From assembly GCA_964540045.1 (NCBI GenBank), contig CAZILE010000001.1:1-43621 (forward strand): a stretch of 43,621 nt of DNA, read 5' to 3'. Each line of letters opens with the position of its first letter. The first letter of the stretch is position 1. The notes under the pieces were generated by a model. That model was not told the origin of the DNA, made no database searches, and saw only the letters and a program-made list of their open reading frames with translations. The stretch comes from an uncultured Nitrososphaeria archaeon (lineage in GTDB: Archaea > Thermoproteota > Nitrososphaeria_A > Caldarchaeales > Wolframiiraptoraceae). Shown piece by piece: positions 14,946 to 42,033 of this stretch. The position numbers and the translations under genes are program-made.

Positions 14946-14948
14946 AGA

Positions 14949-18793: not shown

Positions 18794-18801
18794 TTTATAT
18801 A
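18794..18801 (+). promoter_or_regulatory. TATA-box candidate for the ubiquitin-like operon, with downstream Shine-Dalgarno
   Basis: TTTATATA lies 42 nt upstream of ATG 18843. GGAGGT at 18829-18834 is 8 nt before the ATG. Confidence 0.5.
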
Positions 18802-18842
18802 GCGTATCTTGTGGATAGATTTCAGATAGGAGGTTTGAGTTT

Positions 18843-19079: not shown

Positions 19080-19155
19080 AACTCTCAAAATTTTCTCGAA
19101 AGCCCTCGCTCCGCTCAAAATTAATTACATGGCTGTCTAAATTAAGGATATAGTC

Positions 19156-19635
19156 TTGAGGACTGAGCTTCCTGAGGCTTTATGGAATAGAAGGCTGGCT
19201 CTAGAATATAAGCTAATGCGGGAAAACGAGCCGACCTTCGATATCGTAAATGACCAACTAACCCGTTACAGAGGGGTCATAATAGGCGAGGGGCTGTATG
19301 AAGGAGGATTCTTTAAGATCGAGATAACTGTTCCTAGAGAATTTCCCTATGTGCCACCTGATGTGATTTGGTGGACAAGAATCTGGCATCCAAACTTCAC
19401 CGATGAAGTTCCAGCGAGAATCTGCGAATCCATATTCAAGAATGACTGGAGCCCTTCGCTTCACATATTCTCCATAATTGAGGCTTTGAGAAACCTTCTA
19501 AATAACCCCAATCCAGACGATCCCTTAAACACCTTCGCCGCCGCCGAGATGAAATATAGACCTGACATATTTGAGGCAAGAGTCAGGAGGTATATTGAGC
19601 TGTATGCCAGGCCGGAGTTAGCGTTCCAAGAGTGA
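19156..19635 (+). CDS. Ubiquitin-conjugating enzyme (E2, UBC fold)
   Basis: RIWHPNF (HPN motif) followed by ARICESIFKNDWSPSL, with the catalytic Cys codon at 19423-19425. N-terminal RRLALEYKLM helix. TTG start. Confidence 0.85.
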   Translation: MRTELPEALWNRRLALEYKLMRENEPTFDIVNDQLTRYRGVIIGEGLYEGGFFKIEITVPREFPYVPPDVIWWTRIWHPNFTDEVPARICESIFKNDWSPSLHIFSIIEALRNLLNNPNPDDPLNTFAAAEMKYRPDIFEARVRRYIELYARPELAFQE

Positions 19636-19681
19636 AGATAATACTCATATAAGCCGTGCGAGCTCGGTTTATCTTGTAGGG

Positions 19682-20863
19682 ATGGAAGAGGAGGAGAGGA
19701 AGCTGCTAGAGAGATATGATCGCCAGCTAAGGGTTGAGGGATGGGATCAAGAGAGGCTCACTAAGTCATCCGTGATTATCGTGGGCGTTGGCGCTACTGG
19801 ATGTGAGGTATCTAAAAACTTGGCTCTTATGGGAGTAGGCAAGTTAATCCTGATAGACAACGACGTTATCGAACTCTCAAACCTCAGCAGGCAGATGCTC
19901 TTCTTAGAGGAAGATATAGGTAAGTCAAAGGCGCTTGTTGCCGCGGAGAGGTTGAGAAAGATGAATCCCTTCGTGGAAATCGAGGCTTACTTTGAAGACG
20001 TTAGGAATATTGACGAAGGCTTATTCGATAAAGCGAACGTGATAGCATCATGTCTCGACAACTGGCCCGTGAGGAGATGGCTCAACTCCCTAGCAATCGA
20101 GCTTAACAAGCCCTTAGTGGATATCGCGATGGAAGGCTTTTATGCTAACCTTCAGGTGATCATTCCGGGAAAGACGGCATGTTTAGAATGTCATGGAGAA
20201 GACTTGATACCTAAAGAGGTTCAGCTCGCTGAATGTACTCTGAAGAGAAGAAGACCAGAAGACTTAGTTCAAGATCTTAAATCGGCTGGAGTAAACGTGA
20301 GCTTGAAGCTGGCCAAGAAGCTATTTGATCACAACATTAAAACAATCTATGACTTAAAATACGCTCAGGAAGGCGCCTTGATGAAATTGGATGAAAAGAC
20401 TCAAAAGATCGTGAGGGATATCAGAGAGAAGCTTAAGCCGAAGATGCCAGCCCTTCAGAGCGTCGCCGCGCTGATCTCCGGAATAGCCTCAACCGAAATA
20501 ATTAAGATCCTTCACGGGGATAGGCTGGGAGAGCCCATTAAGGACCTCCTTGTTTATGATGGCTTGGCAGGGCAGTTCACCAGGGTGAAGCTTGACCGCA
20601 ACCCGGAATGCTTCGTCTGCGGGGATCTGGTTGAGGAGGAGATAAAATTTCCCGTTAAGCCAACCGAGACTATTCTGGATCTGAAAAAGAGAATAGCTGA
20701 AACCTTCAGTATCCCCGACCCAGAGATTCTTTACGGTAGCTGGAGGCTCGCTGATGACAAGAGAGTTTCCGAGATAGGGCTTAGGGAGAACGACACGATA
20801 TACATTAGCACCAGCAGAAGATTTATGCCACTACAACTGAGAGTTCAGATAGTGGAGGAGTGA
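19682..20863 (+). CDS. Ubiquitin-activating enzyme-like protein (E1; ThiF/MoeB adenylation domain + C-terminal ubiquitin-fold domain)
   Basis: RYDRQLRVEGW..VIIVGVGATGCEVSKNLALMGVGKLILIDNDVIELSNLSRQ adenylation signature. CxxC pairs CLEC and CFVC. Candidate catalytic Cys in AECTLK. C-terminal roughly 75-aa beta-grasp-like tail. Confidence 0.9.
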   Translation: MEEEERKLLERYDRQLRVEGWDQERLTKSSVIIVGVGATGCEVSKNLALMGVGKLILIDNDVIELSNLSRQMLFLEEDIGKSKALVAAERLRKMNPFVEIEAYFEDVRNIDEGLFDKANVIASCLDNWPVRRWLNSLAIELNKPLVDIAMEGFYANLQVIIPGKTACLECHGEDLIPKEVQLAECTLKRRRPEDLVQDLKSAGVNVSLKLAKKLFDHNIKTIYDLKYAQEGALMKLDEKTQKIVRDIREKLKPKMPALQSVAALISGIASTEIIKILHGDRLGEPIKDLLVYDGLAGQFTRVKLDRNPECFVCGDLVEEEIKFPVKPTETILDLKKRIAETFSIPDPEILYGSWRLADDKRVSEIGLRENDTIYISTSRRFMPLQLRVQIVEE

Positions 20864-21111
20864 CCTACATGGGAAGAATTCTCATAGAAAAGGAGAAAAA
20901 GGTCGGAGACTGGGATCTAAGATTCGAGGAGGAAAACAAAGAGGCTAGAGCGAATATCTGTCCCGTCTGCTCCCTCGAGATCGAGGAGGGCGCGCCGGTC
21001 TTCGAGTGTCCCTTCTGCGGAAATGTCATGCATATGAGATGCGTTCAACCATGGATTGAGAGCCGAGGGACTTGCCCAATTTGCCGAAGACCTTTATCTG
21101 AGAGCTCCTAG
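20860..21111 (+). CDS. Small RING-like zinc-finger protein (candidate E3)
   Basis: CPVC-x12-CPFC-x4-H-x2-C-x10-CPIC with the RING-H2-like tail HMRCVQPWI..GTCPICRR. Start is either GTG 20860 (overlapping the E1 stop) or ATG 20869, which is preceded by GGAGGAG. Confidence 0.85.
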   Translation: MTYMGRILIEKEKKVGDWDLRFEEENKEARANICPVCSLEIEEGAPVFECPFCGNVMHMRCVQPWIESRGTCPICRRPLSESS

Positions 21112-21161
21112 AATACTCTGGGAGGTGAGCGTACCTGAGTGAGCGGGATGAGAGCATAGTT

Positions 21162-21485
21162 GTGGAGCCGAAGTACCTTAGCACCCCTAAGGGTAAGATC
21201 CCGACCTACGACTTCGCTCTAGGGGTTCTGAAGGCAGTTAAGGTTTTAGATGACGTTACAGCAGAACTTGAGGAGAGATTGAACAAGCTTGAGAAAGCTG
21301 GCACCCCAGGACTGGATGAGCTGAGAGAGAGGCTGGAAAGAGTTGAGAGAACTTTAGAAGATCTAGGGAAAAAGTTGGACCTGGATCTTGAGGAAATTAA
21401 TGATAAGCTGTCCACGCTGGCGGATGCGTTCAACGAGCTCTTAGAGAGAGTTCAAAGGCTTGAAGAAACTTTGTCTAAGGGCTGA
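21162..21485 (+). CDS. Coiled-coil protein, unknown function
   Basis: 107-aa ORF with heptad-rich E/L/K sequence (ELEERLNKLEK..LRERLERVERTLEDL). GTG start and no internal Met. Confidence 0.45.
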   Translation: MEPKYLSTPKGKIPTYDFALGVLKAVKVLDDVTAELEERLNKLEKAGTPGLDELRERLERVERTLEDLGKKLDLDLEEINDKLSTLADAFNELLERVQRLEETLSKG

Positions 21486-22338
21486 CGACAGCGCGCCTCA
21501 TATCTGCTATGAGCTTCTCAAGGTTGGAGCGCTTCGCCTCAAGCTCCTTTACTTCGGCTTCCAGCCTCCGCTTACGTTCATTTAACGTGTTTAGCTCGCT
21601 TCTCAGCTGGAGGACTTTTCTTTCAAGCTCCTCCGCCTCTTCCTCCTTCTCCCTCAATTTCGATAAAGATCGTCTGAGCTCGGCTTCCTTTCTGATAAGC
21701 CTTTCCATCCTTATTTCCCTGAGCTTGAAGTCCCTGAGAAGCTCCTTAAGCATGTCTCCAAGCTTGCTTCTAGCTTCTTCAAGCTCTTTCAAATAACGAT
21801 TCTCCAGCTCAGAAACCTTGCGCTCAAGGTCGAGCTTCTTATCCTCAAGCTGCTTGAGCTCGGCCTCCCTTAACGCTAAATTTCTTTCCTTCGCGTCCAA
21901 CTCATCTCTCCACTTTCTAAGCTCTTCCCGGATTACTGCTAATTCGCTCTTCTCCTTTAAGACCATCTCCGCGTCCTGTTTAACCGCTTCACGCTCCTTG
22001 CTCAAAGTCTCAATTACATCCTTCAGGCCATCTTGAATTGAGAGAAGAGTGTTTTCGTAAAACTTAACTTGCTCGAGCCCCTCAGCAATCTTCTCAGCTC
22101 TCTCAACAAACTGAGATAAACTTAGTTTCATTGCATCCGGCTGAGAGGACAGATCGCTGAGAAGCGATGAGGCCTCTGCCAACCTAGCCTCAATCCTTCT
22201 AAGAGATTCTTGAAGAGAATCCAGTCTCATAGAGAATTCTTGTTCAAAGCTTCTCAATTTCTCTTCAAGCTTGCTCTCAACCTCTTCAATCTTTTTTCCT
22301 CCAAATGGCGTCATTCCGAAATCATTGAGCAGAAGCAT
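21475..22338 (-). CDS. Long coiled-coil protein, unknown function
   Basis: 287 aa, almost entirely heptad-repeat E/K/L/R sequence. Its 3' end overlaps the convergent coiled-coil ORF by 11 bp. Confidence 0.6.
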   Translation of the reverse strand: MLLLNDFGMTPFGGKKIEEVESKLEEKLRSFEQEFSMRLDSLQESLRRIEARLAEASSLLSDLSSQPDAMKLSLSQFVERAEKIAEGLEQVKFYENTLLSIQDGLKDVIETLSKEREAVKQDAEMVLKEKSELAVIREELRKWRDELDAKERNLALREAELKQLEDKKLDLERKVSELENRYLKELEEARSKLGDMLKELLRDFKLREIRMERLIRKEAELRRSLSKLREKEEEAEELERKVLQLRSELNTLNERKRRLEAEVKELEAKRSNLEKLIADMRRAVVSP

Positions 22339-22423
22339 TATAAAAAGTTGTTCTTTGTTATGGCCAGTTGATAGTTAGGCTAAAGTTTTTACGCGCCGTT
22401 TATAAGGTGGCAAGTACAGATGT

Positions 22424-23152
22424 GTGAGGGGGAGTTGCGCGAAGTTGTTCACCACTAGAGAAGAAGTCTTATCAAGATTGTATAAGATAGGGTCAGGCGC
22501 AGCGGCCATAGGAGCAATCCATATACTCACCCTTCTCATGAGCTGGTATGTTCAAGTAATCGATGGATCTGAGATACCGATCGAGGGGTGGATAATACCG
22601 GAAGCGAGAATTATGTCGCTCGTCGGAGGTCTTATGGCCGGCATAGGAATAATCGTGATACACTTTATCAAGAGACTTAAGTCCATGAAAATTCTCTTGG
22701 GCTCTCTAATAGTTGTAGGGGGGGCATTAGCAACGCTCTCGCCCGTCTACTCTTACATGTTCTGGTTATCAAATATTGTAACTTACCCGAGATTCGATTT
22801 GGGATTCTTCGCGTCAGCCTTCACCGGCGTCATTCAGCTAGGTATCGGAGCACTCGCATTACTCACCCCTGTTAAGGAAGAAGTAATTCCATCAGCAGTC
22901 GTACCTTCCCCGATCACTTTACCGGAAACCGGCGTAGTTACCCGAGGCCCCAGCAGATCCACAACTGCCAGGCTAGTCCCCGTCTCGGACGTCGAAGAAG
23001 CAATCTGCAGCCTATGTTTTGAGCCGATAGCTCAAGGGGATGCAGTGAGGTGCAGTAATTGCGATGCGATATTCCATAAAGGATGCGTTGATGCTTGGGT
23101 GAGCGTTAACGGAACATGTCCGAGCTGTAAGGCCATAATAACTGGAAGCTAA
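22424..23152 (+). CDS. Membrane protein (about 4 TM helices) with C-terminal RING-like zinc finger (candidate membrane-anchored E3)
   Basis: Four hydrophobic segments, a P/S/T-rich linker, then CSLC-x11-CSNC-x4-H-x2-C-x10-CPSC (codons 23006-23128). The spacing is essentially that of the operon finger at 20860-21111. GTG start. Confidence 0.7.
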   Translation: MRGSCAKLFTTREEVLSRLYKIGSGAAAIGAIHILTLLMSWYVQVIDGSEIPIEGWIIPEARIMSLVGGLMAGIGIIVIHFIKRLKSMKILLGSLIVVGGALATLSPVYSYMFWLSNIVTYPRFDLGFFASAFTGVIQLGIGALALLTPVKEEVIPSAVVPSPITLPETGVVTRGPSRSTTARLVPVSDVEEAICSLCFEPIAQGDAVRCSNCDAIFHKGCVDAWVSVNGTCPSCKAIITGS

Positions 23153-32204: not shown

Positions 32205-33314
32205 ATGAGAGAGCTTGAGAGGCTTGCGGCTGAGAGAGCTCGCGTAGCCGTCAAATACGATAAGATTGGGATGAAGAACGAGGCAGCGAAGCAGTATCGC
32301 GAGGCGATAGCACTTCTAGAGAAGCTTATAGAGCTTACGGAGGATCCTGTGATGAAGAAGATCTACGAGGAGAAGCAGCAGCAGTATAGAAGGAGAGTGG
32401 AAGCGCTGAGCGAAACGCTCTATGTGGGGGATGGAGAGAAGGGTAAGGGTCTTACTGATGTTGAAGAAAGTTTCGTGATCCAAAATCCTCCGCCGATCAA
32501 ATGGGATGATGTCATAGGCTTGGAGAGAGCGAAGAAAGCGATACTTGAAAGCATAATCTATCCCATGAAGAGGCCGGACCTATTCCCTTTAGGGTGGCCC
32601 CGCGGAATACTTCTCTTCGGACCTCCGGGATGCGGTAAAACGATGATCGCAGCAGCAGTCGCTAACGAAATAGACGCGATCTTTATGCATGTTGATGCCT
32701 CAGTCATAATGTCTAAATGGCTTGGAGAATCTGAAAGGAATATCTCGATGATCTTTAATGCTGCTAGGAAGTATGAGGCTTCGGGGAAGCCCGTCATAAT
32801 ATTCATTGATGAGGTTGACTCGCTTACAGCTATAAGGGTGAACGAAGTCGGAGGAGAGGCCAGAGCGAGAAACCAATTGATTAAGGAGATGGATGGGTTG
32901 CTTGATAAGGGGAGGCAGAGCATGATTTACGTCTTGGCGGCCACGAACAAGCCTTGGCTCCTCGACGAGCCTTTCATCCGAAGATTCCAGAAAAGAATAT
33001 TCATTGATTTACCAGATTATGAGGCTAGACTCAAGCTGTTTCAACACTATGCGGGGAAACTGAATCTTGACGGCGATGTAGAGTTATCTGAACTCGCTAG
33101 GATAACTAATGGATATTCTCCAGCCGATATTCATGCGATATGTGTAGAAGTTCAAACCAGGATCGTTAGCGAATTCTTTGAGAGAGGTGGGGAAGAGCCT
33201 AGAAAGATCAAGATGGAAGACTTCTTAGAAGTTATTAGAAGTAGGAAGCCCAGCCTAGATCTCAGAGGCGTTGAGAAAATGCTTAAATGGAATGAAAGGT
33301 TCGGGACGAGCTAG
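32205..33314 (+). CDS. cdvC: Vps4-like AAA+ ATPase CdvC (MIT domain + AAA domain)
   Basis: N-terminal three-helix MIT-like region (AAKQYREAIALLEKLIELTEDP..YRRRVEAL), Walker A GPPGCGKT, Walker B IIFIDEVDS. Confidence 0.9.
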   Translation: MRELERLAAERARVAVKYDKIGMKNEAAKQYREAIALLEKLIELTEDPVMKKIYEEKQQQYRRRVEALSETLYVGDGEKGKGLTDVEESFVIQNPPPIKWDDVIGLERAKKAILESIIYPMKRPDLFPLGWPRGILLFGPPGCGKTMIAAAVANEIDAIFMHVDASVIMSKWLGESERNISMIFNAARKYEASGKPVIIFIDEVDSLTAIRVNEVGGEARARNQLIKEMDGLLDKGRQSMIYVLAATNKPWLLDEPFIRRFQKRIFIDLPDYEARLKLFQHYAGKLNLDGDVELSELARITNGYSPADIHAICVEVQTRIVSEFFERGGEEPRKIKMEDFLEVIRSRKPSLDLRGVEKMLKWNERFGTS

Positions 33315-34048
33315 CCTACGAGCTCTATTAACCCCTTCTCCTCTAACTTTTCGAGTATTTGCTTCACCTGCTTGACATCTATCCCAAGCTCCTTAGCACA
33401 TCTCCTCAGGTCGATCTCTGATCCCGATTTTGAGAGATAAGAATAAACAAGCTGTTCCTTTTCGGAAAGCTTTGGGACGTCAGGGAAAGATTGCCTGACC
33501 TTCTCAGCAGCCACCTTCTGAGCCTCTTCCAGAACCCTTCTCACATCCTCACTTACATCCTCAGACACGCTTAGATCGAAATCACTGACCGTCGTAACTC
33601 CAGCGAAGTCTTCGATATAACATGCGAGCTCGTGAAGGTTCTTAGCCGCTTCCGGAGCTACTCCAGCAACTTCATCCTGAACCTCGGTTATCAGAGAGAG
33701 CAAGGGTATCACGAGTCCCATCAGCTCGCTTACCTCGAGAACGGTCTCAAGCCTAAGCTTAACCTGCTCAAGCAGCAGCTGAGTCCTTCTAACAACTTTG
33801 ACCAGCTTTCTGATCTCGGCGATTTCCTCCGCGTAAATCGACGCCCTCTCTTCATCCCCGGAAGCCATGGCATCCACAACTTGCTCAAAGTACTCCTTAC
33901 TCTTCGAAGTCATCTCCTGATACTTCGAGCCAAGTTTCATGATTTGGGCATTCAACTGATTCAATGATTGCTCAAGCTTCAGCCTTATCTCCTCTCGAGC
34001 CTCTTCATCCACGAATGGATCTTTTCTAAGACCATCTGCGTCAAACAT
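33311..34048 (-). CDS. cdvB: ESCRT-III-like protein CdvB (Snf7 core + MIM2-like motif + C-terminal winged helix)
   Basis: Helical Snf7-like core, proline motif SFPDVPKL (33467-33487), then a wH (LVYSYLSKSGSEIDLRRCAKELGIDVKQVKQILEKLEEKGLIE). Confidence 0.8.
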   Translation of the reverse strand: MFDADGLRKDPFVDEEAREEIRLKLEQSLNQLNAQIMKLGSKYQEMTSKSKEYFEQVVDAMASGDEERASIYAEEIAEIRKLVKVVRRTQLLLEQVKLRLETVLEVSELMGLVIPLLSLITEVQDEVAGVAPEAAKNLHELACYIEDFAGVTTVSDFDLSVSEDVSEDVRRVLEEAQKVAAEKVRQSFPDVPKLSEKEQLVYSYLSKSGSEIDLRRCAKELGIDVKQVKQILEKLEEKGLIELVG

Positions 34049-34165: not shown

Positions 34166-35620
34166 CTAAGCTAATCTAGACTTGAAAAGTAACCTTGTCT
34201 CGCCCATGGTTTTCAGCTCGATCTCCCTCACCCTGACCACAACCGGTAGATCGTTCACAACTTTTCCTATCACGAGACAATGTCTAGGTGGAAGCATCTT
34301 AGCTATGCGCCTCACGGTATCGGCATCCACCCTAGAAGCTCTCGAAATGTAGTTTAGGTCCAACTCGTTGGTGAAGTTAAATAGGAATATGTTGTCGGCC
34401 TGCCTGTAGACCGTCTCAGGTATGCTATCTGGCTGATTCGTTACGAAGATCGGGAAGATCCCTATATGCCTCATCCTAGTTATCAGGTCATCCCAATAAG
34501 TCTCTCTGAGATATAGATGAGCTTCCTCCGCCACAAGGAAAAATGGGTCTATTATACCATCCTTCAAGAGGCTTGAAAGCTTACTCAGAAGATACTCAAC
34601 TATCATCTTCCTCGTTTGGAGAAGAGCTTTAGAGAGGTCCACGACGAATATTCCACCACCGCTTTTCGAGTTCAATACCTTTTCGAGCTTCGTAGAATTC
34701 TCGTCATCGAAGAAGCCGGTCTCACTGAGGCTGAGAAGTCTGCTCATCAAAGCCTCCCGGACCGACTCGTGCATCTGAGCCCTGCTGACGACTTCTATCA
34801 GTTTTCTCAGGGTAACCTTACCCTCATATTTCTTCACGAGACCCCATATTCTTATGAACTCCCTTATGCTGGTGGCTGGGGTTAAGAGGATATGTTGAAG
34901 GATGTCGGTCATGGTTTTCAGCCCGGCGTCCTCCACCGAGACCCTGAAGTTTTCCCCAGGGGTGAGAATCACATGTTTGTCCGCGATCTTGCTAGATGAT
35001 CCTTTTATGGTTTGAGATAAGCCAAGGTACTCGCCGTTTATATCTAGAATGATCGCCTTGGCGCCGTGTTCCGCTAGAGCCGTGATTAAGATCTTCGTTA
35101 GATATGATTTTCCGGTTTCCTTCTTTCCCGTGATTATCGTAAGCCTCCCATCCAGATCCTCCACATTTATCGTCATCGTGCCGTTCATGCATTTACCCAA
35201 GATAAGCTGCCTCCTACCGTAGGTGTGCGATAGCTCTGAGATTAGCTCGGGGGAGGCTTTCTCGATCCTCGAGTTGAACCTGGATGGAAGCCAGATCAGG
35301 TCATTTCTAAGAGTTCCATTAACTATTATCCCCCTGAACTTTGCTATTATCCTCCTAGAGTCCTTCACTCCTATGAGAATCGATCCGACATCGTATGGAT
35401 CAAAGTTTTTTATGGAGATCGATTCGGAGGCGAGCTCCCTCAGGGCGTCCTCGAGAATTCCAGGAACATCAGCATACTCAACATCTATAACCTGCGCTAG
35501 AAGAGTTTTACCTTCATCTATTATCAGGATATAGTCTCCCCGAGTCAGCGGATCTTCTCCAGGTAAGGCCAGAAGCTCAATCGTGTCTCCATTCTTGGCC
35601 AGAATCTTCATCTTCTCCAC
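34166..35620 (-). CDS. herA: HerA/FtsK-superfamily ATPase (DUF87-type, HerA-like)
   Basis: N-terminal HAS-barrel-like region (GDYILIIDEGKTLLAQVIDVEY), Walker A LTIITGKKETGKSY..AIILDINGEY, Walker B FFLVAEEAHLY, IFVTNQPDSIP arginine-finger region. Confidence 0.8.
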   Translation of the reverse strand: MEKMKILAKNGDTIELLALPGEDPLTRGDYILIIDEGKTLLAQVIDVEYADVPGILEDALRELASESISIKNFDPYDVGSILIGVKDSRRIIAKFRGIIVNGTLRNDLIWLPSRFNSRIEKASPELISELSHTYGRRQLILGKCMNGTMTINVEDLDGRLTIITGKKETGKSYLTKILITALAEHGAKAIILDINGEYLGLSQTIKGSSSKIADKHVILTPGENFRVSVEDAGLKTMTDILQHILLTPATSIREFIRIWGLVKKYEGKVTLRKLIEVVSRAQMHESVREALMSRLLSLSETGFFDDENSTKLEKVLNSKSGGGIFVVDLSKALLQTRKMIVEYLLSKLSSLLKDGIIDPFFLVAEEAHLYLRETYWDDLITRMRHIGIFPIFVTNQPDSIPETVYRQADNIFLFNFTNELDLNYISRASRVDADTVRRIAKMLPPRHCLVIGKVVNDLPVVVRVREIELKTMGETRLLFKSRLA

Positions 35621-36714
35621 TCTCCATCTAAGGGATTGAAGAGAATATCTCGTATTGAGGATGCCTTGAAGAACTCGGCTCCGAATCGCTTGAGGAGGGA
35701 TTGAATTGCTATCACGTCGCTCTTGGTGAAGGTGCAGTAATCATGAGCAAGTATAAGGAGCTCTGGATATCCGTAAATCAGTGGATCGCTCTTCAGCAGG
35801 CTCCCGAAAACCTCCTCGATCTTTCTATTGGTCGACGCATCTACTCTAAAGGCGTTGAGACCTGAGCTGAGCTTTGCGAGGAAGGTTTTGCCCAGAACCT
35901 TCACTTTCATCTCTATTTTCTTGATAAGCCAGGTCATGTCCACTAGGTAGGGGGGCTTAACCCCGACTCTATCCTCCGTGAACACCGCTGACCAGAACTG
36001 GAGGATGCTCGTCTTGGAGAATGCTAGAACATCGTTGCCTCCGGGCTTAGCCTTCTCGAGAATTCTTGAGACAAGCCAGAGAGGGTTGTCTAGAGGACCT
36101 GCTGAGAGCGAGCCATCCAGGAGGAGGATGTTGTCTCGGAAGCGCTCAACGACATATTCTTGGATTCTTTTCTCAAGAAGCCCTGCCAAGATCTTCTGAA
36201 CCGAACCGTCGAGCTGATAGTCCGAGAACTCGAGAGGCGTGAACTCCCCTAAGATCGATCCTAAGACCTCGGGCAGGTTATCATGGGTAAGATACGCTAT
36301 GAAGGGGCCTATTCGTTGAATCTCCAGTCCAAGCTCATTTCTAGTGACTATGCTCCCTCTTGCTCCGATCGCCAGCCCTCCTCTTCCAGCTGCAACGATT
36401 ATCGAGGAGGTATCTATGGCCACAACCTGCCTCTCAGCCGCATCTTCGAGAGGAATCTGGACCGTTGAGACATCTACTCTCTGAGCCTCCTCAAGAAGCC
36501 AGAGAGGCCAGTCATTTTGAGCAAGATCCTCTTCATGAAAATCTGTGGACTGAGCCCCGCCAGCTAGGCTGAGACTTCTTCTACCCGTCTCTAGGAAAGA
36601 TTTAAAGAGCTTCTCGAAGCCATTTAACTTGGGTTGAGTAAGTTGCCGCATGCCCCAGCTTTCCCCGATTTTATTGAGCTTACTGTGCTTATAAATGTTG
36701 CTCAATTTGAGCAA
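35608..36714 (-). CDS. nurA: NurA-like nuclease (RNase H-fold)
   Basis: NurA motifs VVAIDTSS, NILLLDGSL, GYPELLILAHD. 13-bp overlap with herA. The track start (36714) is TTG. ATG at 36651 (MRQLTQ) is more plausible and restores a 71-bp promoter region. Confidence 0.65.
   Translation of the reverse strand: MLKLSNIYKHSKLNKIGESWGMRQLTQPKLNGFEKLFKSFLETGRRSLSLAGGAQSTDFHEEDLAQNDWPLWLLEEAQRVDVSTVQIPLEDAAERQVVAIDTSSIIVAAGRGGLAIGARGSIVTRNELGLEIQRIGPFIAYLTHDNLPEVLGSILGEFTPLEFSDYQLDGSVQKILAGLLEKRIQEYVVERFRDNILLLDGSLSAGPLDNPLWLVSRILEKAKPGGNDVLAFSKTSILQFWSAVFTEDRVGVKPPYLVDMTWLIKKIEMKVKVLGKTFLAKLSSGLNAFRVDASTNRKIEEVFGSLLKSDPLIYGYPELLILAHDYCTFTKSDVIAIQSLLKRFGAEFFKASSIRDILFNPLDGEWRR
36689..36696. promoter_or_regulatory. 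Shared TATA-box candidate in the divergent nurA-herA / wH-paralogue-1 promoter
   Basis: TTATAAAT lies about 27-34 nt upstream of ATG 36723 (+) and about 38-45 nt upstream of ATG 36651 (-). Confidence 0.45.
36698..36714. promoter_or_regulatory. Perfect 17-bp palindrome (8-1-8), candidate operator
   Basis: TTGCTCAA-T-TTGAGCAA sits between the TATA candidate and ATG 36723. An extra half-site, TTGAGC, is at 36674-36679. Confidence 0.5.
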
Positions 36715-36722
36715 GATTCAAA

Positions 36723-37169
36723 ATGAGCAAAGAAGAGAAAATCAGGGTAGAGATCGTCATAGGGCCCGCTACGGTTAGGGTGGAGGCTCCACCCGACAAG
36801 CTTGAAGAAGCCGTAAAAAACGCCATCACGGCTTTAAAGTCAGCTCTACCTCAGCTTGGAGCGGAGATAGAGCAGGAGAAAGCGGCTGTGGCCAAGCCCG
36901 AGAAGCCCAAGCGCAGACCAACTCCAACATGCTCCGAGCTTATTAGAGGCTTGATCGAAGAGGGGTGGTTTGATGAGGCGAGAACCCTCTCAGAGGTTGT
37001 TCAAGAGCTTGCGAAGAGGGGTTATCATTATGATTCCACGGCGGTATCGCACAGTCTTCTTGATCTAGTTAGAGAACGCGCGCTCATAAGGGAAGGCGTT
37101 CCAAGGCGGTATACCTATCGTAAAGCCTCATTCGATCAGAGGGATCTTAAGCCGTCCACAGAGCTCTAA
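36723..37169 (+). CDS. Small winged-helix protein, paralogue 1 of 4 (unknown family)
   Basis: N-terminal KIRVEIVIGPATVRVEAPPDKLEEAV module, a K/P/E-rich linker, and a C-terminal wH (TLSEVVQELAKRGYHYDSTAVSHSLLDLVRERALIREGVPRRYTYR). Confidence 0.65.
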   Translation: MSKEEKIRVEIVIGPATVRVEAPPDKLEEAVKNAITALKSALPQLGAEIEQEKAAVAKPEKPKRRPTPTCSELIRGLIEEGWFDEARTLSEVVQELAKRGYHYDSTAVSHSLLDLVRERALIREGVPRRYTYRKASFDQRDLKPSTEL

Positions 37170-37202
37170 AGCATTGAGGCTAAGCAAGAGCACTTAACTA
37201 GT

Positions 37203-37718
37203 TTAACCTTCGCAACGTTCTCCGGATTCGGGCTTTGAATATTTATCTGCTAGATACTTTATGCCTAAAGTCGTTATCGTATAGTCTCCACGGTCAAGCC
37301 TTCTGAGAAGCTCAGCCTGAACCAGCTTGGTTAAGTTATTTAAGATTGTCTTCTTTTTCGCAGAGAGGCTTGATTCAAGCTCCATGGAGCTGATGTTCGC
37401 GCTCCCGATTCTCCCTAGCTTATACTCAAGATACTTCCTCAAGGCTAAAAATAGGATAGCGTCCGAAACTGATTTCAACTTGTTAAGACTCAGCTTGAAG
37501 AATATCCCTTCCTGCTCGTTGTAGGCGAGTATATTGCTGAAAGTCTCAAAGAGATCGCTCAGATCCATGCTGAATGAAATTTTTCTCGCCAGAGAGTAAG
37601 CTGGAAGAGCCTTCTCTATGAAGGAAACCACCTGCCGGTAGACCACCTCAGGAGGACCCGTGAACTCTGCCCCGAGATCACCATACCTTATGATTACCTT
37701 AAGTTCCTCGGAGCTCAT
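37203..37718 (-). CDS. Small winged-helix protein, paralogue 2 of 4
   Basis: N-terminal LKVIIRYGDLGAEFTGPPEVVYRQV module. C-terminal wH (ISSMELESSLSAKKKTILNNLTKLVQAELLRRLDRGDYTITTLG). 4-bp overlap with the upstream paralogue. Confidence 0.65.
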   Translation of the reverse strand: MSSEELKVIIRYGDLGAEFTGPPEVVYRQVVSFIEKALPAYSLARKISFSMDLSDLFETFSNILAYNEQEGIFFKLSLNKLKSVSDAILFLALRKYLEYKLGRIGSANISSMELESSLSAKKKTILNNLTKLVQAELLRRLDRGDYTITTLGIKYLADKYSKPESGERCEG

Positions 37719-38185
37719 CTCCTCTCACCAAACACCTCCTCTAACGAGCTAGATGTGAAGCCATATAATCCTTCGCCGGACTTGATCACGAGACCCGCCC
37801 TCCTAAGCTCGCTTAACCTAGCTCTTGTAACCCGCTCGTCCAGCCCCGTATATGCAGCGATCTCCTTCGGCGCAAGCTTATCCTTTTCGAAGAGACCGAG
37901 GGCTTTCCCGACATGAGCTGCTGCTAAGCATAGGAGGATCTTCCGCTTCGCATCCATCTCCTTGAGGATAATTATCCTCCCTTCCCTAAACTCAACGAGA
38001 CCCTCGAGCCTCTTAGCTAAGTCTGCGACATCGATAGCTCCGGTCAGCTTCTTGACTATCTCCAAGGCTGGATATGTTTCTGAAAAGAACTTGTTCACGC
38101 TTCTCCAGACGCTTTCATAATCTCCTTCAAACTCCACCTCGGTCTCATCATGTCTTATCATGACCTTAAGCTTCTCAGAGTTCAC
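37715..38185 (-). CDS. Small winged-helix protein, paralogue 3 of 4
   Basis: N-terminal LKVMIRHDETEVEFEGDYESVWRSV module. C-terminal wH (LAPKEIAAYTGLDERVTRARLSELRRAGLVIKSGEGLYGFT). 4-bp overlaps on both sides. Confidence 0.7.
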   Translation of the reverse strand: MNSEKLKVMIRHDETEVEFEGDYESVWRSVNKFFSETYPALEIVKKLTGAIDVADLAKRLEGLVEFREGRIIILKEMDAKRKILLCLAAAHVGKALGLFEKDKLAPKEIAAYTGLDERVTRARLSELRRAGLVIKSGEGLYGFTSSSLEEVFGERR

Positions 38186-38655
38186 CTAGCCTCACCACCC
38201 CTAAAGGCGCGCTCGACATACTCAATACCCTTTCTCAGGATTCGGAAAGCCTTTCGATCGTTCTGCTTTCCAGCTTCCTCCATGTATCCTTCTCGAATCA
38301 AGTTTGACATAACGTCCCGCGCATTGCCGGGCATCGGCCACCTCGCCTGCCGATAATAGTTCTCGACATCTTCGTAAGTTAGATCTCTGTCCTCCCGCTT
38401 ATAGAGATAATAAGCTATGGTGAGAAATTTCTCCCAATTCTTCTTAGGATTCAGGAGACTGGCGAACTCGACGAATGAAAGTTGCTCATCCACGAGAGGA
38501 GACCGCCTGCCTCGAAAGAGATGGCCCGATTCTTTGAGCTTTCCGAGAATAGCGTCGATCCAGCTTAGATTGGAGAGCCTTGATTCGAGAAAATCTTTAT
38601 CGCCCTCAAGCTCGAGCTCCAATTCCCCAAACTTCAATCTAACTTTGTATGACAT
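38182..38655 (-). CDS. Small winged-helix protein, paralogue 4 of 4 (first gene of the three-gene operon)
   Basis: N-terminal YKVRLKFGELELELEGDKDFLESRL module. C-terminal wH-like region (LTYEDVENYYRQARWPMPGNARDVMSNLIREGYMEEAG..AFRILRKG). Confidence 0.65.
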   Translation of the reverse strand: MSYKVRLKFGELELELEGDKDFLESRLSNLSWIDAILGKLKESGHLFRGRRSPLVDEQLSFVEFASLLNPKKNWEKFLTIAYYLYKREDRDLTYEDVENYYRQARWPMPGNARDVMSNLIREGYMEEAGKQNDRKAFRILRKGIEYVERAFRGGEAR

Positions 38656-38678
38656 CTGTGCTTCTCAGAAAGTTAAAC

Positions 38679-38689
38679 AGCTAATAGCT
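38679..38689. promoter_or_regulatory. 11-bp palindrome in the promoter region of the wH-paralogue operon
   Basis: AGCTA-A-TAGCT lies 24-34 nt upstream of the minus-strand ATG at 38655, next to a TATA-like CTATAAG (reverse strand, 38696-38703). Confidence 0.3.
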
Positions 38690-38776
38690 ATTAAGGCTTA
38701 TAGACCTAGCTGAAAATGCTTACTTGCGGGCAGTCAAGGCACTAGCTAAGCACGGCAAAGAAACTTGGAGAAAGGA

Positions 38777-40687
38777 TCATGCACGGCCGCTTTGGCCACG
38801 AACCGCCTTAGAGACCAGTTGATATAGTCTTGCTCCATCAACTCTTCCCCGATAAACCTTCATGATATCTCCCATAATTGTTGAGATCGCCTTTCTTGGA
38901 TTGGCTTTAACGAGGTTTTCATACTTTTCCAGAAGCTCTCTAACCCTGGCCTCCACTTCCTCCAAGCTGACAGGCTTCAGCCCAAGAGCGCTTATAGCGT
39001 CTTCAAGCCCCTTGTCAGGGTTCTCGGCAAGCCACTTTATGATCTCGGGGGCGGCCTCCTTTGCGACCACACCCTTTGAGACGAGCTTGAAGAACTTTAG
39101 CAAGTCTTCTTCCTTGACCAGCTCGACCTTAAATCCCTCTCGTTTCAAGCTTTTCATGTGCTCTACCAGTGTTGCTGCTATTACACTTGGCTGAACTCTC
39201 GTCTCCTCTACTATCCTCTCGAATAGCTCAACCTTCTCAGAGTCTATGAGCTCGTTCGCCGCCTGCCTACTTAGTCCGTACTTCTTCGAGAGCATCTCCG
39301 CGACCTCATCCAAGGTTGGTGGAAGCCTTCTTCTAACCTCCTCAATATACTCCTTCGGGAGCGGAAGAGGTGGGATATCTGTTTCCGGATACATTCTAGC
39401 CGCGCCCGGCCTCGGCCTCAGGTAGATCGTTGTCCCATCTGGTTTTGCCCCCCGAGTCTCTGAGGGAACGCCATACAGCGCCTCGATAGCCCTCTCTCTA
39501 ACCCTCTCAAGAGCATCTTCGGCGCGCTTCCGCTCGGCGGCCACCAAGACCACAGCGTCAAGGTCGCCCGCGTCAAACTCTGCTTTCAGTAGCTTCACTT
39601 CCTCCTCCGAGATTCCATAGCCCGGAAGCTCATCGGTGTGAAAGATTCCCTCAACCTCGGACCAAGCTCTAGCCCTTCCCGCTAGCTCCGCTCCAAGCCT
39701 TATTCCTGGAGCTGCCTCGAGTTTTAGTAGACCGCTGAACTTGGGAAGCTTTAAGGCCAGGACGACGGCCCCGCGATCGATCTTCCTCCTCAAGATCTTT
39801 GACCTTGTCTTGGAGAAGATGCTTGTAACATCTTTTATCGGCTCCCGTTTAAGGTCATCCTCTGAGACACCCCTCCTGCTAAGCTCGTCCCGTATTTTGA
39901 GGAGATGTAGCTGCCTCATCACCTCAAGTTCAACGACCTTTGGAAGAAGATCCAGCTCTTGGACACCCTTTATTTCTATTAAGGCGCCATCCTTTATCGA
40001 GATGTTCAAGTCCTGCCTGACCGTTCCTATCCCTCTTTTCACCTTCTTGGTCGCTCGTAGGACTCTGCCGATCGCGTAAGCCACCTTATATGCCTCCTCC
40101 GGCGAGGTTATCACCGGGGCGGTGGAGACCTCTATCAAGGGTATTCCGAGCCTAGAGAGGTCGTAGTGGACTTCATGTGGCTTCTGCTCGAGTATCCTCG
40201 CGGCATCCTCCTCAAGGGTTATTGTTTGAATCGGTACGATCTTCCCATTAACTCTCAGTTCTCCGCCTAAGGCTATGACGCAGGTTCTCTGGAAGCCCGT
40301 AGTGTTTGATCCATCAATAACGATCTTTCTCATGACGTGTATCTCGTTAACGGGATTGGCATTCATCAGGAGGGCGACCATTAGCGCGACTTCAACCGCC
40401 TCCCTGTTGAGGTTATGCGGAGGCTCTTCGTCCATCTCAACTAGGCAGGTATTCATGGTGTCCGCATGATAGACTATTTTCCTCCGTTTCCGGGACTCGA
40501 AGATTGCGGCTGGATCTACTTCGCCGAGCTCGCTCTGAGCTTCTCTAAGCCATCTGACGAAGATTATTTCTTTTCCACCCTCTCTGTGAGTTGTCGGACA
40601 ATCACAGAAGAGCTTATGCTGGGTATCGAGCTGCCTATGAATCTCAAGCCCAACTTTTAGACCGAGCTTCTCATAGTCTATCTCCAT
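38777..40687 (-). CDS. gatE: Glutamyl-tRNA(Gln) amidotransferase subunit E
   Basis: N-terminus YEKLGLKVGLEIHRQLDTQHKLFCDCPT is canonical GatE. 636 aa, with a GatB/YqeY-like C-terminal domain. Confidence 0.95.
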   Translation of the reverse strand: MEIDYEKLGLKVGLEIHRQLDTQHKLFCDCPTTHREGGKEIIFVRWLREAQSELGEVDPAAIFESRKRRKIVYHADTMNTCLVEMDEEPPHNLNREAVEVALMVALLMNANPVNEIHVMRKIVIDGSNTTGFQRTCVIALGGELRVNGKIVPIQTITLEEDAARILEQKPHEVHYDLSRLGIPLIEVSTAPVITSPEEAYKVAYAIGRVLRATKKVKRGIGTVRQDLNISIKDGALIEIKGVQELDLLPKVVELEVMRQLHLLKIRDELSRRGVSEDDLKREPIKDVTSIFSKTRSKILRRKIDRGAVVLALKLPKFSGLLKLEAAPGIRLGAELAGRARAWSEVEGIFHTDELPGYGISEEEVKLLKAEFDAGDLDAVVLVAAERKRAEDALERVRERAIEALYGVPSETRGAKPDGTTIYLRPRPGAARMYPETDIPPLPLPKEYIEEVRRRLPPTLDEVAEMLSKKYGLSRQAANELIDSEKVELFERIVEETRVQPSVIAATLVEHMKSLKREGFKVELVKEEDLLKFFKLVSKGVVAKEAAPEIIKWLAENPDKGLEDAISALGLKPVSLEEVEARVRELLEKYENLVKANPRKAISTIMGDIMKVYRGRVDGARLYQLVSKAVRGQSGRA

Positions 40688-42033
40688 CAGCTCACCTCCA
40701 TTTCCGATGGGAGGCTTCTCTCACCGAGCTCGCCCGCGATCGGGGTTAGCATAAGCCTTCTTATCTCGTCTAAGTCTCTAGCCCTTCCAAGGCACCATGA
40801 TAGCTTGATGTATGCCGTCTCAGGGAGCATGTCGTCTAGCGGAACGACCCCCGCTCTCAAAAGGTATCTCCCAGTGTCATAAACCCTCATGTTCACCCTG
40901 CCGAAGATGCATTGGGAGGTCATTCCGACGAATACTCCCCGCTCGATGAGCCCCCTGATTGTTGGGATGAGCCTGTTACTTACATGCCCTAATCCGCTTC
41001 CCTCCAAAATAATCCCCCTACAACCCCTCTCGTAAAGGAGATCGAGAAACTCTGGAGGCATACCTGGATAGAACTTGACTAGAGCCGCGTCTGGAGAGAA
41101 ACCTGGTTCAAAACGGTACTCTGTTGAGCCCCTCGGATTGAGGTTGCTTGAGTTAAGCTTGATCTCGCCCTCAACGACATAGGCTATAGGCTCACAGTTC
41201 ACGGATCTGAAGGCATTCCTGCTGCTTGTGTGAAGCTTTCTAACTCTGGTCCCCCTATGGATCGCGATGACCGTGTCTGAATGCCAGGCGTGCATGGAGA
41301 CGCATACCTCTCCAAATGGCGCATGTCCAGCCACTTTTACCGCTGCTATCAAGTTGGTCGCAGCATCGCTGGACGGTCTATCAGATGATCTTTGAGCTCC
41401 GACGAAAACTATGGGGATTGGAGGCTTCTGAAGAGCGAAGCTCAGAGCGGCGGCCGAGTAGCCCATAGTATCTGTTCCATGAGCAATCACGACTCCCTCG
41501 ACCCCATCTCGTATTAGTTTATCCGCTTCCGAAGCCATCTTGTTCCAGTGATCCACGGTCATGTCCTCACTGTAGATCGAGAAGAGTATCTTTGCATCAA
41601 GATCGGCTAAATCTGCTAGCTCGGGGACGATCGAGAGGAGATCATCGGCCGTTAACGCAGCTCTAACGCCTCCCGTTCTATAATCTATTCGACTGGCGAT
41701 AGTCCCGCCCGTGCTAATCACGACTACTTTTGGTAAACCTGGCTCGGCTGGAGGTCTCGGAGGCGGGACAAAGCTGGGTCTTTTCGCCGCTGCAACCTTC
41801 TTCACAAGCATCTTCTCCGAGACTTTTATCCCAATATTGTATCCGTTTGGGAGCTTAATCACGATATATCCGGGCTCAGCGAGCTCGTATCTCGCCATGA
41901 GCGTTCCTCGATAGATCTCTCCATCCACCCTAACCTCGATCTCATCTCCCACCGCAACCCCAGCGTTCTCTAGAAGCCTTCGAACTTCACCGGAATATCC
42001 TTGAAGCGTATCTTGATCGCTCACGATAGACAA
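40687..42033 (-). CDS. gatD: Glutamyl-tRNA(Gln) amidotransferase subunit D (asparaginase-like)
   Basis: Asparaginase motifs ISTGGTIASR and AHGTDTM. Its stop overlaps the gatE start by 1 bp. TTG start. Confidence 0.9.
   Translation of the reverse strand: MSIVSDQDTLQGYSGEVRRLLENAGVAVGDEIEVRVDGEIYRGTLMARYELAEPGYIVIKLPNGYNIGIKVSEKMLVKKVAAAKRPSFVPPPRPPAEPGLPKVVVISTGGTIASRIDYRTGGVRAALTADDLLSIVPELADLADLDAKILFSIYSEDMTVDHWNKMASEADKLIRDGVEGVVIAHGTDTMGYSAAALSFALQKPPIPIVFVGAQRSSDRPSSDAATNLIAAVKVAGHAPFGEVCVSMHAWHSDTVIAIHRGTRVRKLHTSSRNAFRSVNCEPIAYVVEGEIKLNSSNLNPRGSTEYRFEPGFSPDAALVKFYPGMPPEFLDLLYERGCRGIILEGSGLGHVSNRLIPTIRGLIERGVFVGMTSQCIFGRVNMRVYDTGRYLLRAGVVPLDDMLPETAYIKLSWCLGRARDLDEIRRLMLTPIAGELGERSLPSEMEVS

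Follow-up and report, generated by a model that had tools for sequence, protein, structure and literature searches.

A HerA-like/NurA-like gene pair linked to an undescribed family of beta-hairpin and winged-helix paralogues in Caldarchaeales and Bathyarchaeia

The analysis of the window, i.e. the whole stretch of 43,621 nucleotides under study, supports a functional tie between a HerA-like/NurA-like gene pair and an uncharacterised family of paralogues that combine a beta-hairpin with a winged helix. The pair and four members of the family, here called A, B, C and D, correspond to six ORFs, all of which were found where the original prediction had placed them. The module recurs throughout Caldarchaeales (Aigarchaeota), the order of the host, and in Bathyarchaeia; no paper describing it was found in the literature. 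New here are an undescribed small-protein family and a deeply conserved control site beside HerA-NurA, in two large groups of uncultivated archaea.

Linkage was evaluated in 80 metagenome loci. Wherever the sequence suffices, A is divergent and adjacent to the NurA-like gene (55/55) and the HerA-like gene (44/44), and this A-nurA-herA adjacency persists where all other neighbours differ, across class-level divergence. B, C and D, which are variable in number, are mostly adjacent or a few kb off and in some loci separated from the rest: of 65 metagenome loci, 48 contain B/C genes and 28 have them adjacent, 6 loci whose flank reaches 4 kb or more have none, and elsewhere B/C/D genes remain within a few kb of A despite unrelated genes inserted between. 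The conservation of linkage from Caldarchaeales to Bathyarchaeia bears out the suspected co-occurrence of winged-helix paralogues with HerA-NurA. The order C-B-A-NurA-HerA is retained, with changing flanks, in 25 of 33 Caldarchaeales species loci; the other 8 are Geocrenenecus loci, retaining only gatDE-D-C. Two Caldarchaeales-like metagenome loci (L050 and L051), which we infer to belong to Geocrenenecus, contain A-NurA-HerA with no B/C gene within 8 kb, so that the halves of the module may reside at separate loci in this lineage.

The nuclease gene (35608..36651, minus strand) encodes 347 aa when read from the ATG at 36651. The ORF as first listed (35608-36714, minus strand) begins at a TTG at 36714, inside the palindrome of the A promoter, and its 21 extra N-terminal codons (MLKLSNIYKH...) result from translating the conserved TATA box and palindrome of that promoter on the reverse strand. 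The ATG at 36651 (protein P0092) is likely the true start, which leaves A and nurA about 71 bp of promoter DNA apart, not 8 bp. The NurA fold is supported by Pfam (NurA, 21.4 bits, cut-off 21) and by an AlphaFold2 model (pLDDT 79.6, pTM 0.82), for which Foldseek returned the defence nuclease TdpB (8wfd_G) as top match, along with the NurA proteins of T. kodakarensis (9x1m_G) and S. solfataricus (Sso; 2ygk), at 1.7-2.7e-8. An invariant D-E-D-H site is formed by residues D80, E160, D179 and H303 (numbered as in P0092), which are collinear with the motifs of Sso NurA. As for the motifs originally singled out, no variation is seen in DxS, DGSL or the His of AHD, while the Asp of AHD varies between lineages.

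The gene for the ATPase (34166..35620, minus strand) encodes a HerA-clade, hexameric-type P-loop ATPase of 484 aa if the GTG at 35620 is the start, or of 481 aa from the ATG at 35611 (public annotation P0140). The shorter form, whose start overlaps the nurA stop as ATGA, is more likely; the proposed coupling of the two genes is therefore retained, while the 13-bp overlap given for it depends on the GTG start. The assignment to the HerA/FtsK type holds: Pfam DUF87 was matched with 49.2 bits (cut-off 23.2, 9e-13), and the family profile matched Sulfolobus HerA (4d2i), the closest solved relative, with an E-value of 2.5e-18 over residues 119-470, i.e. the whole ATPase region. Walker A (TGxKxxGKS), Walker B (FLxEEAH), TRMRH and NQPD are invariant in 12 orthologues, with identity down to 45%. 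Bathyarchaeia orthologues are about 48% identical, and the 45-50% identity between classes suggests slow vertical evolution. With the canonical HerA equivalog model of NCBIfam the score is 35.7 bits, where the cut-off is 800, a distance which may indicate a paralogue with a different substrate.

Mre11 and Rad50 are absent from the window, as had been noted: no match was found in a scan of all ORFs of at least 300 aa and most of those of at least 180 aa, all but one of which matched some other family. In the window, cdvB lies directly after herA, followed by a convergent vps4, as in the Wolframiiraptor-like lineage; this CdvB-Vps4 adjacency is seen in 14 of 64 loci, every one of them belonging to the lineage of the window. 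The gene for the 8-oxoguanine glycosylase Ogg overlaps the herA stop in 17 of the 64 loci (Caldarchaeum, Terraquivivens and L038), with ogg-rsmB following herA in some lineages lacking the Cdv adjacency, and 13 Bathyarchaeia-type loci have a NUDIX/NUDIX_4 gene converging on herA. Both neighbours are lineage-specific and neither occurs in this window, but their presence in sister lineages points to a repair context. A housekeeping character is suggested by the adjacency of gatDE in several lineages of Caldarchaeales and Bathyarchaeia, by the unremarkable base composition of the module, and by the finding of no relative of it in plasmid, phage and IMG/VR collections.

Protein A (36723..37169, plus strand, 148 aa) is composed of an N-terminal beta-hairpin and helix, a basic variable linker, an invariant T-C and a highly conserved winged-helix-like domain (GWF...RRGxHYDxTAVAHxLLDLV...REGxPRRYxY), with 23 invariant positions in the family alignment; it has no match in Pfam, NCBIfam or PDB. 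In the divergent promoter region between nurA and A (36652..36722), a TATA box TTATAAAT (36689-36696) is directly followed by a perfect palindrome, TTGCTCAA-T-TTGAGCAA (36698-36714), which occurs once in the window and precedes the A start codon at 36723; a weaker AT-rich box (36668-36675) is oriented toward nurA. In 106 of 110 loci the A promoter contains a TATA box and, after it, a TTGNNCAA-type palindrome (scored as TATA plus TTG[CT]NCA), an element not mentioned in the original prediction. Elsewhere this combination gave just 46 matches in 2.7 Mb searched on both strands, and 5 under a stricter pattern. The operator has the form TTGCTCAA or TTGCGCAA in Caldarchaeales and TTGTGCAT-N8-ATGCACAA in Bathyarchaeia-type loci, and its type co-varies with the putative recognition helix of A, a correlation confounded by phylogeny. 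Linkage and promoter element suggest that A is probably an autoregulating transcription factor of the module. The palindrome could alternatively be bound by another factor or, in Bathyarchaeia-type loci, be partly a 5'-UTR element.

D (38182..38655, 157 aa), C (37715..38185, 156 aa) and B (37203..37718, 171 aa) form, in this order, an operon on the minus strand, where the predicted 4-bp overlaps D/C and C/B follow from the coordinates. The region upstream (38656..38776, minus strand) carries its own conserved elements, GTGCT-N6-GTGC, CACTTTCA and CTTAATA/CTTATAA, unlike the A operator, which was not found there. The four small proteins, described as clearly paralogous, belong to one superfamily, with an N-terminal beta-hairpin and helix and a predicted C-terminal winged helix. 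Paralogy is strong for B and C (blastp 1.7e-15, hhalign 99.5%), while A and D, a remote paralogue, join through profiles and intermediates (hhalign BC-D 6e-7 over 138 columns; A-D 1.8e-7, spanning the N-terminal module; BC against Bathyarchaeial A-like proteins 4e-9 by profile comparison). In Bathyarchaeia the gene at the D position is A-like; D orthologues are found in Wolframiiraptor-like and Geocrenenecus loci, and a Bathyarchaeia-type locus, L082, holds a D-family member (2e-21) and an expanded paralogue cluster.

An AlphaFold2 model of C (pLDDT 82) predicts an N-terminal alpha/beta region, made up of a hairpin (6-21), three helices and a second hairpin (64-73), and a C-terminal winged helix (79-152); the Foldseek matches listed are generic winged-helix ones to the C-terminal half. 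The winged helix, postulated for all four proteins, is thus predicted by a structure model for C, and by homology and sequence pattern for A, B and D. Pfam gave weak winged-helix matches for B (HVO_A0261_N, MarR) and none for D. The small proteins fit no described family, as first proposed: A to D match no curated family, and the N-terminal module common to A and B/C/D is absent from all those searched. A word-index search with C gave 91 matches; an exhaustive search with a B/C-family profile, built on the C homologues plus B of the window, gave 408 cluster representatives at E<=1e-3, of which 126 reach E<=1e-10, and most of the matches listed are full-length, about 160-175 aa. Fusions of B/C-family domains with a Ser/Thr kinase and with DUF488 also occur and suggest an adaptor function; B, C and D probably act as adaptors that bind DNA.

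With moderate confidence, we read the whole as a DNA-processing module that is chromosomal, is passed on vertically and most likely serves in repair, with A as regulator and B/C/D as adaptors. The nurA and herA genes would be co-transcribed and translationally coupled and, by analogy with solved HerA-NurA complexes, a HerA ring translocase would pass DNA to a NurA dimer, to be resected or degraded. A, as a dedicated winged-helix transcription factor, would bind the palindrome just after its own TATA box, and control its own promoter and probably also that of nurA-herA, about 50 bp away. B, C and D, paralogues of A with an extra small alpha/beta region, would probably use the common N-terminal hairpin module to oligomerise and their winged helices to bind DNA, either bringing the nuclease-motor complex to its substrate, as adaptors or sensors, or modulating A. 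Counted against this reading are the four paralogues, which exceed the regulatory needs of a two-gene operon, the loose linkage of B, C and D, whose operon lacks the A operator, the position of TdpB as top structural match of the nuclease, and the distance of the HerA family from canonical HerA.

The end-resection complex of archaea (HerA-NurA of Sulfolobus and Pyrococcus/Thermococcus; PDB 4d2i, 2ygk, 3tai, 9x1m) shares with the module a ring-type HerA-clade ATPase gene placed directly after a NurA-fold nuclease gene and coupled to it, the D-E-D-H residues and the full ATPase region. The sequences are very distant, as seen for HerA and for the NurA_Sulf model of NCBIfam (11 against a cut-off of 400); in addition, unlike canonical operons, the module lacks mre11/rad50 in its operon, both in the window and in some 100 related loci. 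It also has between one and four winged-helix paralogues as well as a conserved operator, neither of which was found described for canonical operons. Outside thermophilic Crenarchaeota and Euryarchaeota, it is common for a HerA-NurA pair to have no mre11-rad50 next to it. The genes could encode an ordinary double-strand-break resection pair with mre11-rad50 elsewhere, the small genes being ordinary transcription factors or inherited neighbours that form no complex with it. The closeness to Sso HerA, the variable placement or absence of B, C and D and their resemblance to MarR/ArsR-type winged-helix proteins would all fit, but the A-nurA-herA adjacency outlasts all other neighbours, B/C/D stay close to A, and A and B/C/D have a specific N-terminal module in common; we consider this explanation rather doubtful. 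In Deinococcus radiodurans, a stand-alone nurA-herA without adjacent mre11-rad50 is implicated in end resection (PMC9960219), and RecJ is reported as a HerA partner (PMC4663267); compared with this pair from another domain of life, the module differs in its winged-helix paralogue family.

HerA-based defence systems are patchy and mobile. In TdpAB, SIR2-HerA and DUF4297-HerA (PDB 8wfd, 8j4u, 9c1m), as in the module, a HerA-like hexamer is combined with a nuclease effector, and TdpB is the nuclease's best structural match; the module could act against viruses or plasmids, its winged-helix paralogues sensing foreign DNA. The best PADLOC matches of the ATPase are indeed mad8 and defence-type HerA models, its top NCBIfam match is HerA_antiphage (47 bits), kinase and DUF488 fusions are frequent in conflict systems, and paralogue number is variable, up to the expanded cluster of L082. 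Every defence-model score, however, is far below family level, the PADLOC matches of the small proteins are insignificant and the nuclease has none; no SIR2, DUF4297, Dnd-type or modification partner is found near the module, which is syntenic among housekeeping genes, apparently slowly evolving, normal in composition and without relatives in the plasmid, phage and IMG/VR collections. A defence function is thus disfavoured and appears unlikely. Less probable still is a segregation or resolution translocase coupled to Cdv/ESCRT-III division, with ESCRT-II-like or FtsK-gamma-like small proteins, although HerA belongs to the FtsK-HerA superfamily and both halves of the C model might be taken for winged-helix-like domains. 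The adjacency to cdvB and vps4 that had suggested it is confined to one lineage, other lineages having ogg-rsmB after herA or a facing NUDIX gene; a dedicated nuclease partner whose active site is intact is ill-suited to a segregation pump, and the Foldseek matches listed are generic winged-helix regulators, with ESCRT-II, Vps25 and ScpB absent among them.

The third role originally considered, regulation of the adjacent genes, finds genuine support for A in the conserved operator-like palindrome at its promoter, and leaves three further paralogues unexplained. The site between TATA box and start codon is the classic position of archaeal repressors, and A resembles autoregulators of the MarR/ArsR/TrmB type, being small, of winged-helix type and divergent from an operon. 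Unlike these, it matches no regulator family and has its N-terminal hairpin module in common with three paralogues; the conservation of its linkage and operator across classes is also uncommon among local regulators.

The module spans window positions 34166-38655. On the minus strand lie the HerA-like ATPase (34166-35620, 484 aa) and the NurA-like protein (35608-36714, 368 aa as an ORF), followed by protein A on the plus strand (36723-37169, 148 aa) and by protein B (37203-37718, 171 aa), protein C (37715-38185, 156 aa) and protein D (38182-38655, 157 aa), all three on the minus strand. According to ORF coordinates D and C, and likewise C and B, overlap by 4 bp, as originally noted. The public annotation starts herA at the ATG at 35611, where it is coupled to the nurA stop by an ATGA overlap. 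The herA side is flanked by cdvB (33311-34048), vps4 (32205-33314) and a Lrp-type regulator, and the opposite side, next to D, by gatE/gatD (38777-42033). By its homologues the window is assigned to Caldarchaeales (Aigarchaeota), nearest to Wolframiiraptor-like genomes.

The ATPase was assigned to the HerA clade of the FtsK-HerA P-loop ATPases by its motifs and by homology of its ATPase module. It matches Pfam DUF87 with 49.2 bits (cut-off 23.2), and the family profile aligns with S. solfataricus HerA (4d2i, E 2.5e-18) over the full ATPase module, from residue 119 to 470 of the query and from 106 to 470 of the chain; the N-terminal ~118 residues aligned to no structure by sequence. Walker A (TGxKxxGKS) and Walker B (FLxEEAHLY) are invariant in 12 orthologues; these two (EEAH in Walker B) and further motifs stay unchanged among orthologues with identities as low as 45%. 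The model for the canonical DSB-repair HerA equivalog (NCBIfam NF040937) gave 35.7 bits against a cut-off of 800, and the ATPase is about equally distant from defence-type HerA models and from CedD models.

The match of the nuclease to Pfam NurA is borderline (21.4 bits, cut-off 21.0), and NF041033 NurA_Sulf scored 11 against a cut-off of 400. The comparison of its profile with 2ygk gave E 0.028, yet is collinear in all three motifs. The AlphaFold2 model (pLDDT 79.6, pTM 0.82) was compared with known structures by using Foldseek, which retrieved 2ygk (2.7e-8, TM 0.49/0.53), 9x1m_G (2.2e-8) and 3tai; the top matches are TdpB and the NurA proteins of T. kodakarensis, S. solfataricus and P. furiosus, with Endonuclease V and Argonaute PIWI domains placed below the NurA-fold subunits. 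These matches support an RNase H-like NurA fold for the protein. Residues D80, E160, D179 and H303 are invariant both in 16 and in 23 NurA-like sequences, and are collinear with the motifs of Sso NurA; as judged from these alignments, the catalytic Asp (DxS/T), Glu, Asp (DG) and His are conserved. In the 'AHD' motif noted originally, the His (H303) is indeed invariant, while the Asp varies across lineages. In HerA-NurA complexes (PDB 9x1m, 4d2i, 2ygk) a NurA dimer receives DNA from a translocating HerA hexamer. The nurA-herA pair very probably encodes a nuclease-translocase.

The reported lack of Mre11 and Rad50 in the window was borne out: neither was matched among the ORFs scanned, which include most of those of at least 180 aa and all of those of at least 300 aa, and all but one of which matched some other family. 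Both genes are also absent from the called-gene tables of five related loci, the remaining loci having been scanned with module-specific and neighbour models only. The module is therefore not a herA-mre11-rad50-nurA operon of the kind found in thermophilic archaea, with mre11 and rad50 beside herA and nurA.

The four small proteins had been described as clearly paralogous. For B and C the relationship is clear (blastp 1.7e-15; hhalign 99.5%), but A and D are remote and are joined to them by family profiles. The B/C profile matches that of D over 138 columns (6e-7) and that of the A-like proteins found at the D position in Bathyarchaeia over 127 columns (4e-9); the latter also match A (3e-18). 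The A-D (2e-7) and A-BC (1e-6) similarities both cover the N-terminal ~35 residues, which correspond to a shared module, made up of a beta-hairpin and a subsequent helix that fit the pattern h+VxhxxGxxExxhEGxxxxV. The winged-helix domain proposed for all four proteins is found in the AlphaFold2 model of C (pLDDT 82), as three helices plus a wing at 79-143, but is assigned to A, B and D by homology. In this model a hairpin (6-21) precedes three helices, a second hairpin (64-73) and the winged helix (79-152). Foldseek searches of PDB and BFVD with it matched the generic winged-helix half only, retrieving MarR, IdeR, IclR and O-methyltransferase N-domains. Protein A comprises the hairpin-helix module, a basic variable linker and a highly conserved winged-helix-like domain, and has 23 invariant positions.

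Scanning A-D against Pfam, NCBIfam and PADLOC gave only generic HTH matches below threshold, and PDB profile searches with the A family and with the shared N-terminal module returned nothing significant. No curated family or solved structure is matched above threshold by any of the four, and scores below the Pfam and NCBIfam cut-offs place them outside the curated MarR/ArsR/TrmB-like regulator families. An exhaustive profile search with the B/C family collected 408 representatives of 50%-identity clusters at E<=1e-3, and 126 at E<=1e-10; most of the 150 matches listed are 160-175 aa long and align over nearly their full length. A few members are fused to other domains (metagenome proteins P0265, P0397 and P0295/P0301). 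One fusion joins a Ser/Thr protein kinase to two copies of the C-terminal, middle-plus-winged-helix half, another joins a full-length B/C protein to DUF488, and in P0295/P0301 a full-length B/C protein follows an N-terminal domain of ~200 aa. By eye the latter resembles a PD-(D/E)xK nuclease, an assignment that was discarded as Pfam gave it no support.

Gene order was compared in 33 GTDB species loci, all from Caldarchaeales. Wolframiiraptor-like genomes share the order gatD gatE D C B A(-) nurA herA cdvB vps4(-) lrp(-). Terraquivivens has gatDE C B A nurA herA ogg rsmB, Caldarchaeum has C B A nurA herA ogg rsmB without gatDE, and in Geocrenenecus only gatDE D C is found. Two Caldarchaeales-like metagenome loci (L050 and L051), which carry A-nurA-herA with no B/C within 8 kb, may be the other half of a split Geocrenenecus cluster. 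Orthologues of the HerA-like protein, ~48% identical, are also present in Bathyarchaeia, where the loci hold the same module beside gatE, and here too the small paralogues number four.

Metagenomes scanned with the A family as seed yielded at least 482 relatives, and 80 loci were kept. The linkage of the winged-helix genes to HerA-NurA, noted originally, is upheld for A, which, where the contig is long enough, divergently adjoins the NurA-like gene (55/55), followed by the HerA-like gene (44/44). For B/C-type genes it holds only in part: of 65 loci, 48 have such genes within reach and 28 have them adjacent. Many loci of the Bathyarchaeia type place 1-6 kb of unrelated housekeeping genes between them and A, among these a peptidase, a glyoxalase-like gene, a HAD hydrolase and a transporter as read from sequence. 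The invariable arrangement of A-nurA-herA, compared with the variable placement of B/C, defines A-nurA-herA as the strict core and D-C-B as a looser satellite, present in one to three copies and expanded in the Bathyarchaeia-type locus L082. These data delineate a distinct HerA-NurA branch in Bathyarchaeia and Caldarchaeales, from which the partner protein A is never separated. A functional tie between A and the nurA-herA pair is highly likely, while B, C and D are considered, with somewhat greater probability than not, to be part of the same system. In L082, four additional genes lie between A and the B/C cluster (6412-8644), encoding a D-family member, an A-like protein, a 325-aa protein with a C-terminal A-type winged helix and a 110-aa protein consisting of the A-type winged helix only; the small-protein family has thus grown locally and been put to use in other architectures.

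The region between nurA and A (36652-36722) contains a TATA box, TTATAAAT (36689-36696), directly followed by a perfect palindrome, TTGCTCAA-T-TTGAGCAA (36698-36714), which occurs once in the window; the start codon of A lies beyond it, at 36723. Of 110 loci, 106 carry a TATA box followed by TTG[CT]NCA (TATA plus TTGNNCAA element) at the A promoter. Three of the four exceptions have no upstream sequence, and in the fourth, L079, GTTGCGCAA follows a TATA-like box which falls outside the search pattern. When a stricter pattern was searched on both strands of 2.7 Mb, 60 out of 65 matches fell at A promoters. The half-site is TTGCTCAA in Wolframiiraptor-like genomes and TTGCGCAA in Terraquivivens and Caldarchaeum, and TTGTGCAT-N8-ATGCACAA is found in Bathyarchaeia-type loci.

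Conservation over class-level distances is rare in archaeal non-coding DNA. Its occurrence here, where proteins share only 30-48% identity, points to a DNA-binding partner that is likewise conserved, for which protein A, always adjacent, highly conserved and of putative winged-helix structure, is the obvious candidate. The half-site variants track substitutions in the putative recognition helix of A (AVSHS, AVAHV, R-TAVAHA), a co-variation which is confounded by phylogeny and is only suggestive of sequence-specific operator binding; binding of the operator by A is slightly favoured. An operator shared with the D-C-B operon was ruled out, as the elements upstream of D-C-B differ. In the window (38656-38776) and in the equivalent regions of L004-L024, these consist of GTGCT-N6-GTGC at ~-100, CACTTTCA at ~-55 and a CTTAATA/CTTATAA TATA box; a 12-bp palindrome, TAATAGCTATTA, is also located upstream of the D-C-B operon of the window.

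The same element bears on the start of nurA. The public call (P0092, 347 aa) starts 21 codons later than the 368-aa ORF, at the ATG at 36651, which is most likely the true start. The extra 21 codons ('MLKLSNIYKH') come from translating the conserved TATA box and palindrome of the A promoter in reverse. The public NurA-like calls P0093, P0100, P0109 and P0127 open with 'M(L)KLSNIYKH...' (compare window 36652-36714), and their starts are very likely over-extended; the 'extension' peptide looks conserved in several database entries because its codons read a conserved promoter element. This is a systematic annotation error, in which nurA starts run through the operator.

Three functions had been considered for the module: defence, a translocase or resolvase linked to Cdv-mediated division, and regulation of the adjacent genes. 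The genes cdvB-vps4-lrp are found downstream of herA in 14 of 64 loci, all of them Wolframiiraptor-like. Since the adjacency is confined to one lineage, the Cdv link is local and no property of the module; no ESCRT-II protein is present among the Foldseek matches listed, and the module is unlikely to be an ESCRT-II-like Cdv accessory. Other neighbours recur downstream of herA: ogg, overlapping the herA stop and followed by rsmB, in 17 of the 64 loci (two further loci have rsmB, with ogg undetected), and a convergent NUDIX/NUDIX_4 gene facing herA in 13 Bathyarchaeia-type loci of the 64. These recurrent 8-oxoguanine-related neighbours weakly indicate DNA repair.

A defence role could be suggested by the nearest structural match of the nuclease, TdpB, and by the fusion of B/C domains to kinase and DUF488 domains. 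However, the module occupies a syntenic position among housekeeping genes, its base composition is normal (G+C 0.47-0.49, the same as in the remaining window), the HerA-like protein diverges slowly, and no relatives were found in PLSDB plasmids, INPHARED phages or IMG/VR. PADLOC returned only partial, low-scoring HerA matches and no match to effectors (SIR2, DUF4297 etc.). These results speak against an anti-phage HerA system and a defence island; the defence reading is disfavoured but keeps some probability, and repair, rather than defence, is the probable function.

In the mechanism proposed for such a repair-related module, A would repress or tune its own promoter and that of nurA-herA through the palindrome, while B, C and D would oligomerise by the hairpin module, contact DNA via their winged helices and serve as adaptors or sensors. 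More speculatively, A-D could form a hetero-oligomer via the N-terminal hairpin, a DNA-recognition complex which loads or gates HerA-NurA and replaces or parallels Mre11-Rad50 in sensing DNA ends or lesions in Bathyarchaeia and Aigarchaeota, with A acting in addition as a transcriptional feedback sensor; this is regarded as unlikely.

Model thermophilic archaea rely on HerA-NurA as an essential engine of end resection. Its targeting and regulation are poorly understood, and knowledge of it comes almost entirely from Sulfolobales and Thermococcales. Bathyarchaeia and Caldarchaeales are very abundant, uncultivated lineages. The nuclease and the ATPase belong to known families; what is new is a widespread, distinct HerA-NurA branch with an obligate winged-helix partner, satellite paralogues and a deeply conserved operator. 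Full-text literature searches found no description of either the gene combination or the small-protein family, and the module is not described in the C. subterraneum genome paper either. A dedicated regulator-operator pair and new accessory factors of HerA-NurA can now be put forward as concrete candidates for cloning.

Some further features of the loci were recorded. The Ogg-type 8-oxoguanine glycosylase gene is located at 13909-14538 in L001, 13997-14620 in L003 and 9534-10127 in L038, among others; in Caldarchaeum, Terraquivivens and L038 it overlaps the end of herA, and rsmB and an unknown gene of ~138 aa come next. In the window, cdvB encodes an ESCRT-III protein with a C-terminal winged helix, and is convergent with vps4/cdvC, with a 4-bp overlap (33311-33314). 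No cdvA candidate was detected among the scanned window ORFs, in line with the report that C. subterraneum lacks CdvA (PMC3082918). Scans of the window for tRNAs and Rfam families gave no match. Beyond the module the window is made up of housekeeping genes (including 1653-5060 and 14379-16663), such as those for the PolD large subunit DP2, TldD, MTHFR, SHMT, a split MetE, the KEOPS subunit Cgi121, KsgA, DUF655, a class-II aminoacyl-tRNA synthetase, HMG-CoA synthase and thiolase. Positions 17986-23152 hold a ubiquitin system of the eukaryote-like kind that typifies Aigarchaeota. It includes a JAB/Rpn11-like protease (17986-18639, minus strand), a ThiF/E1-like protein with a C-terminal ubiquitin-family domain (19682-20863, plus strand) and a zf-RING_2 protein (22424-23152, plus strand); two small ORFs lying between these genes (18629-18970 and 19156-19635) may encode ubiquitin or E2.
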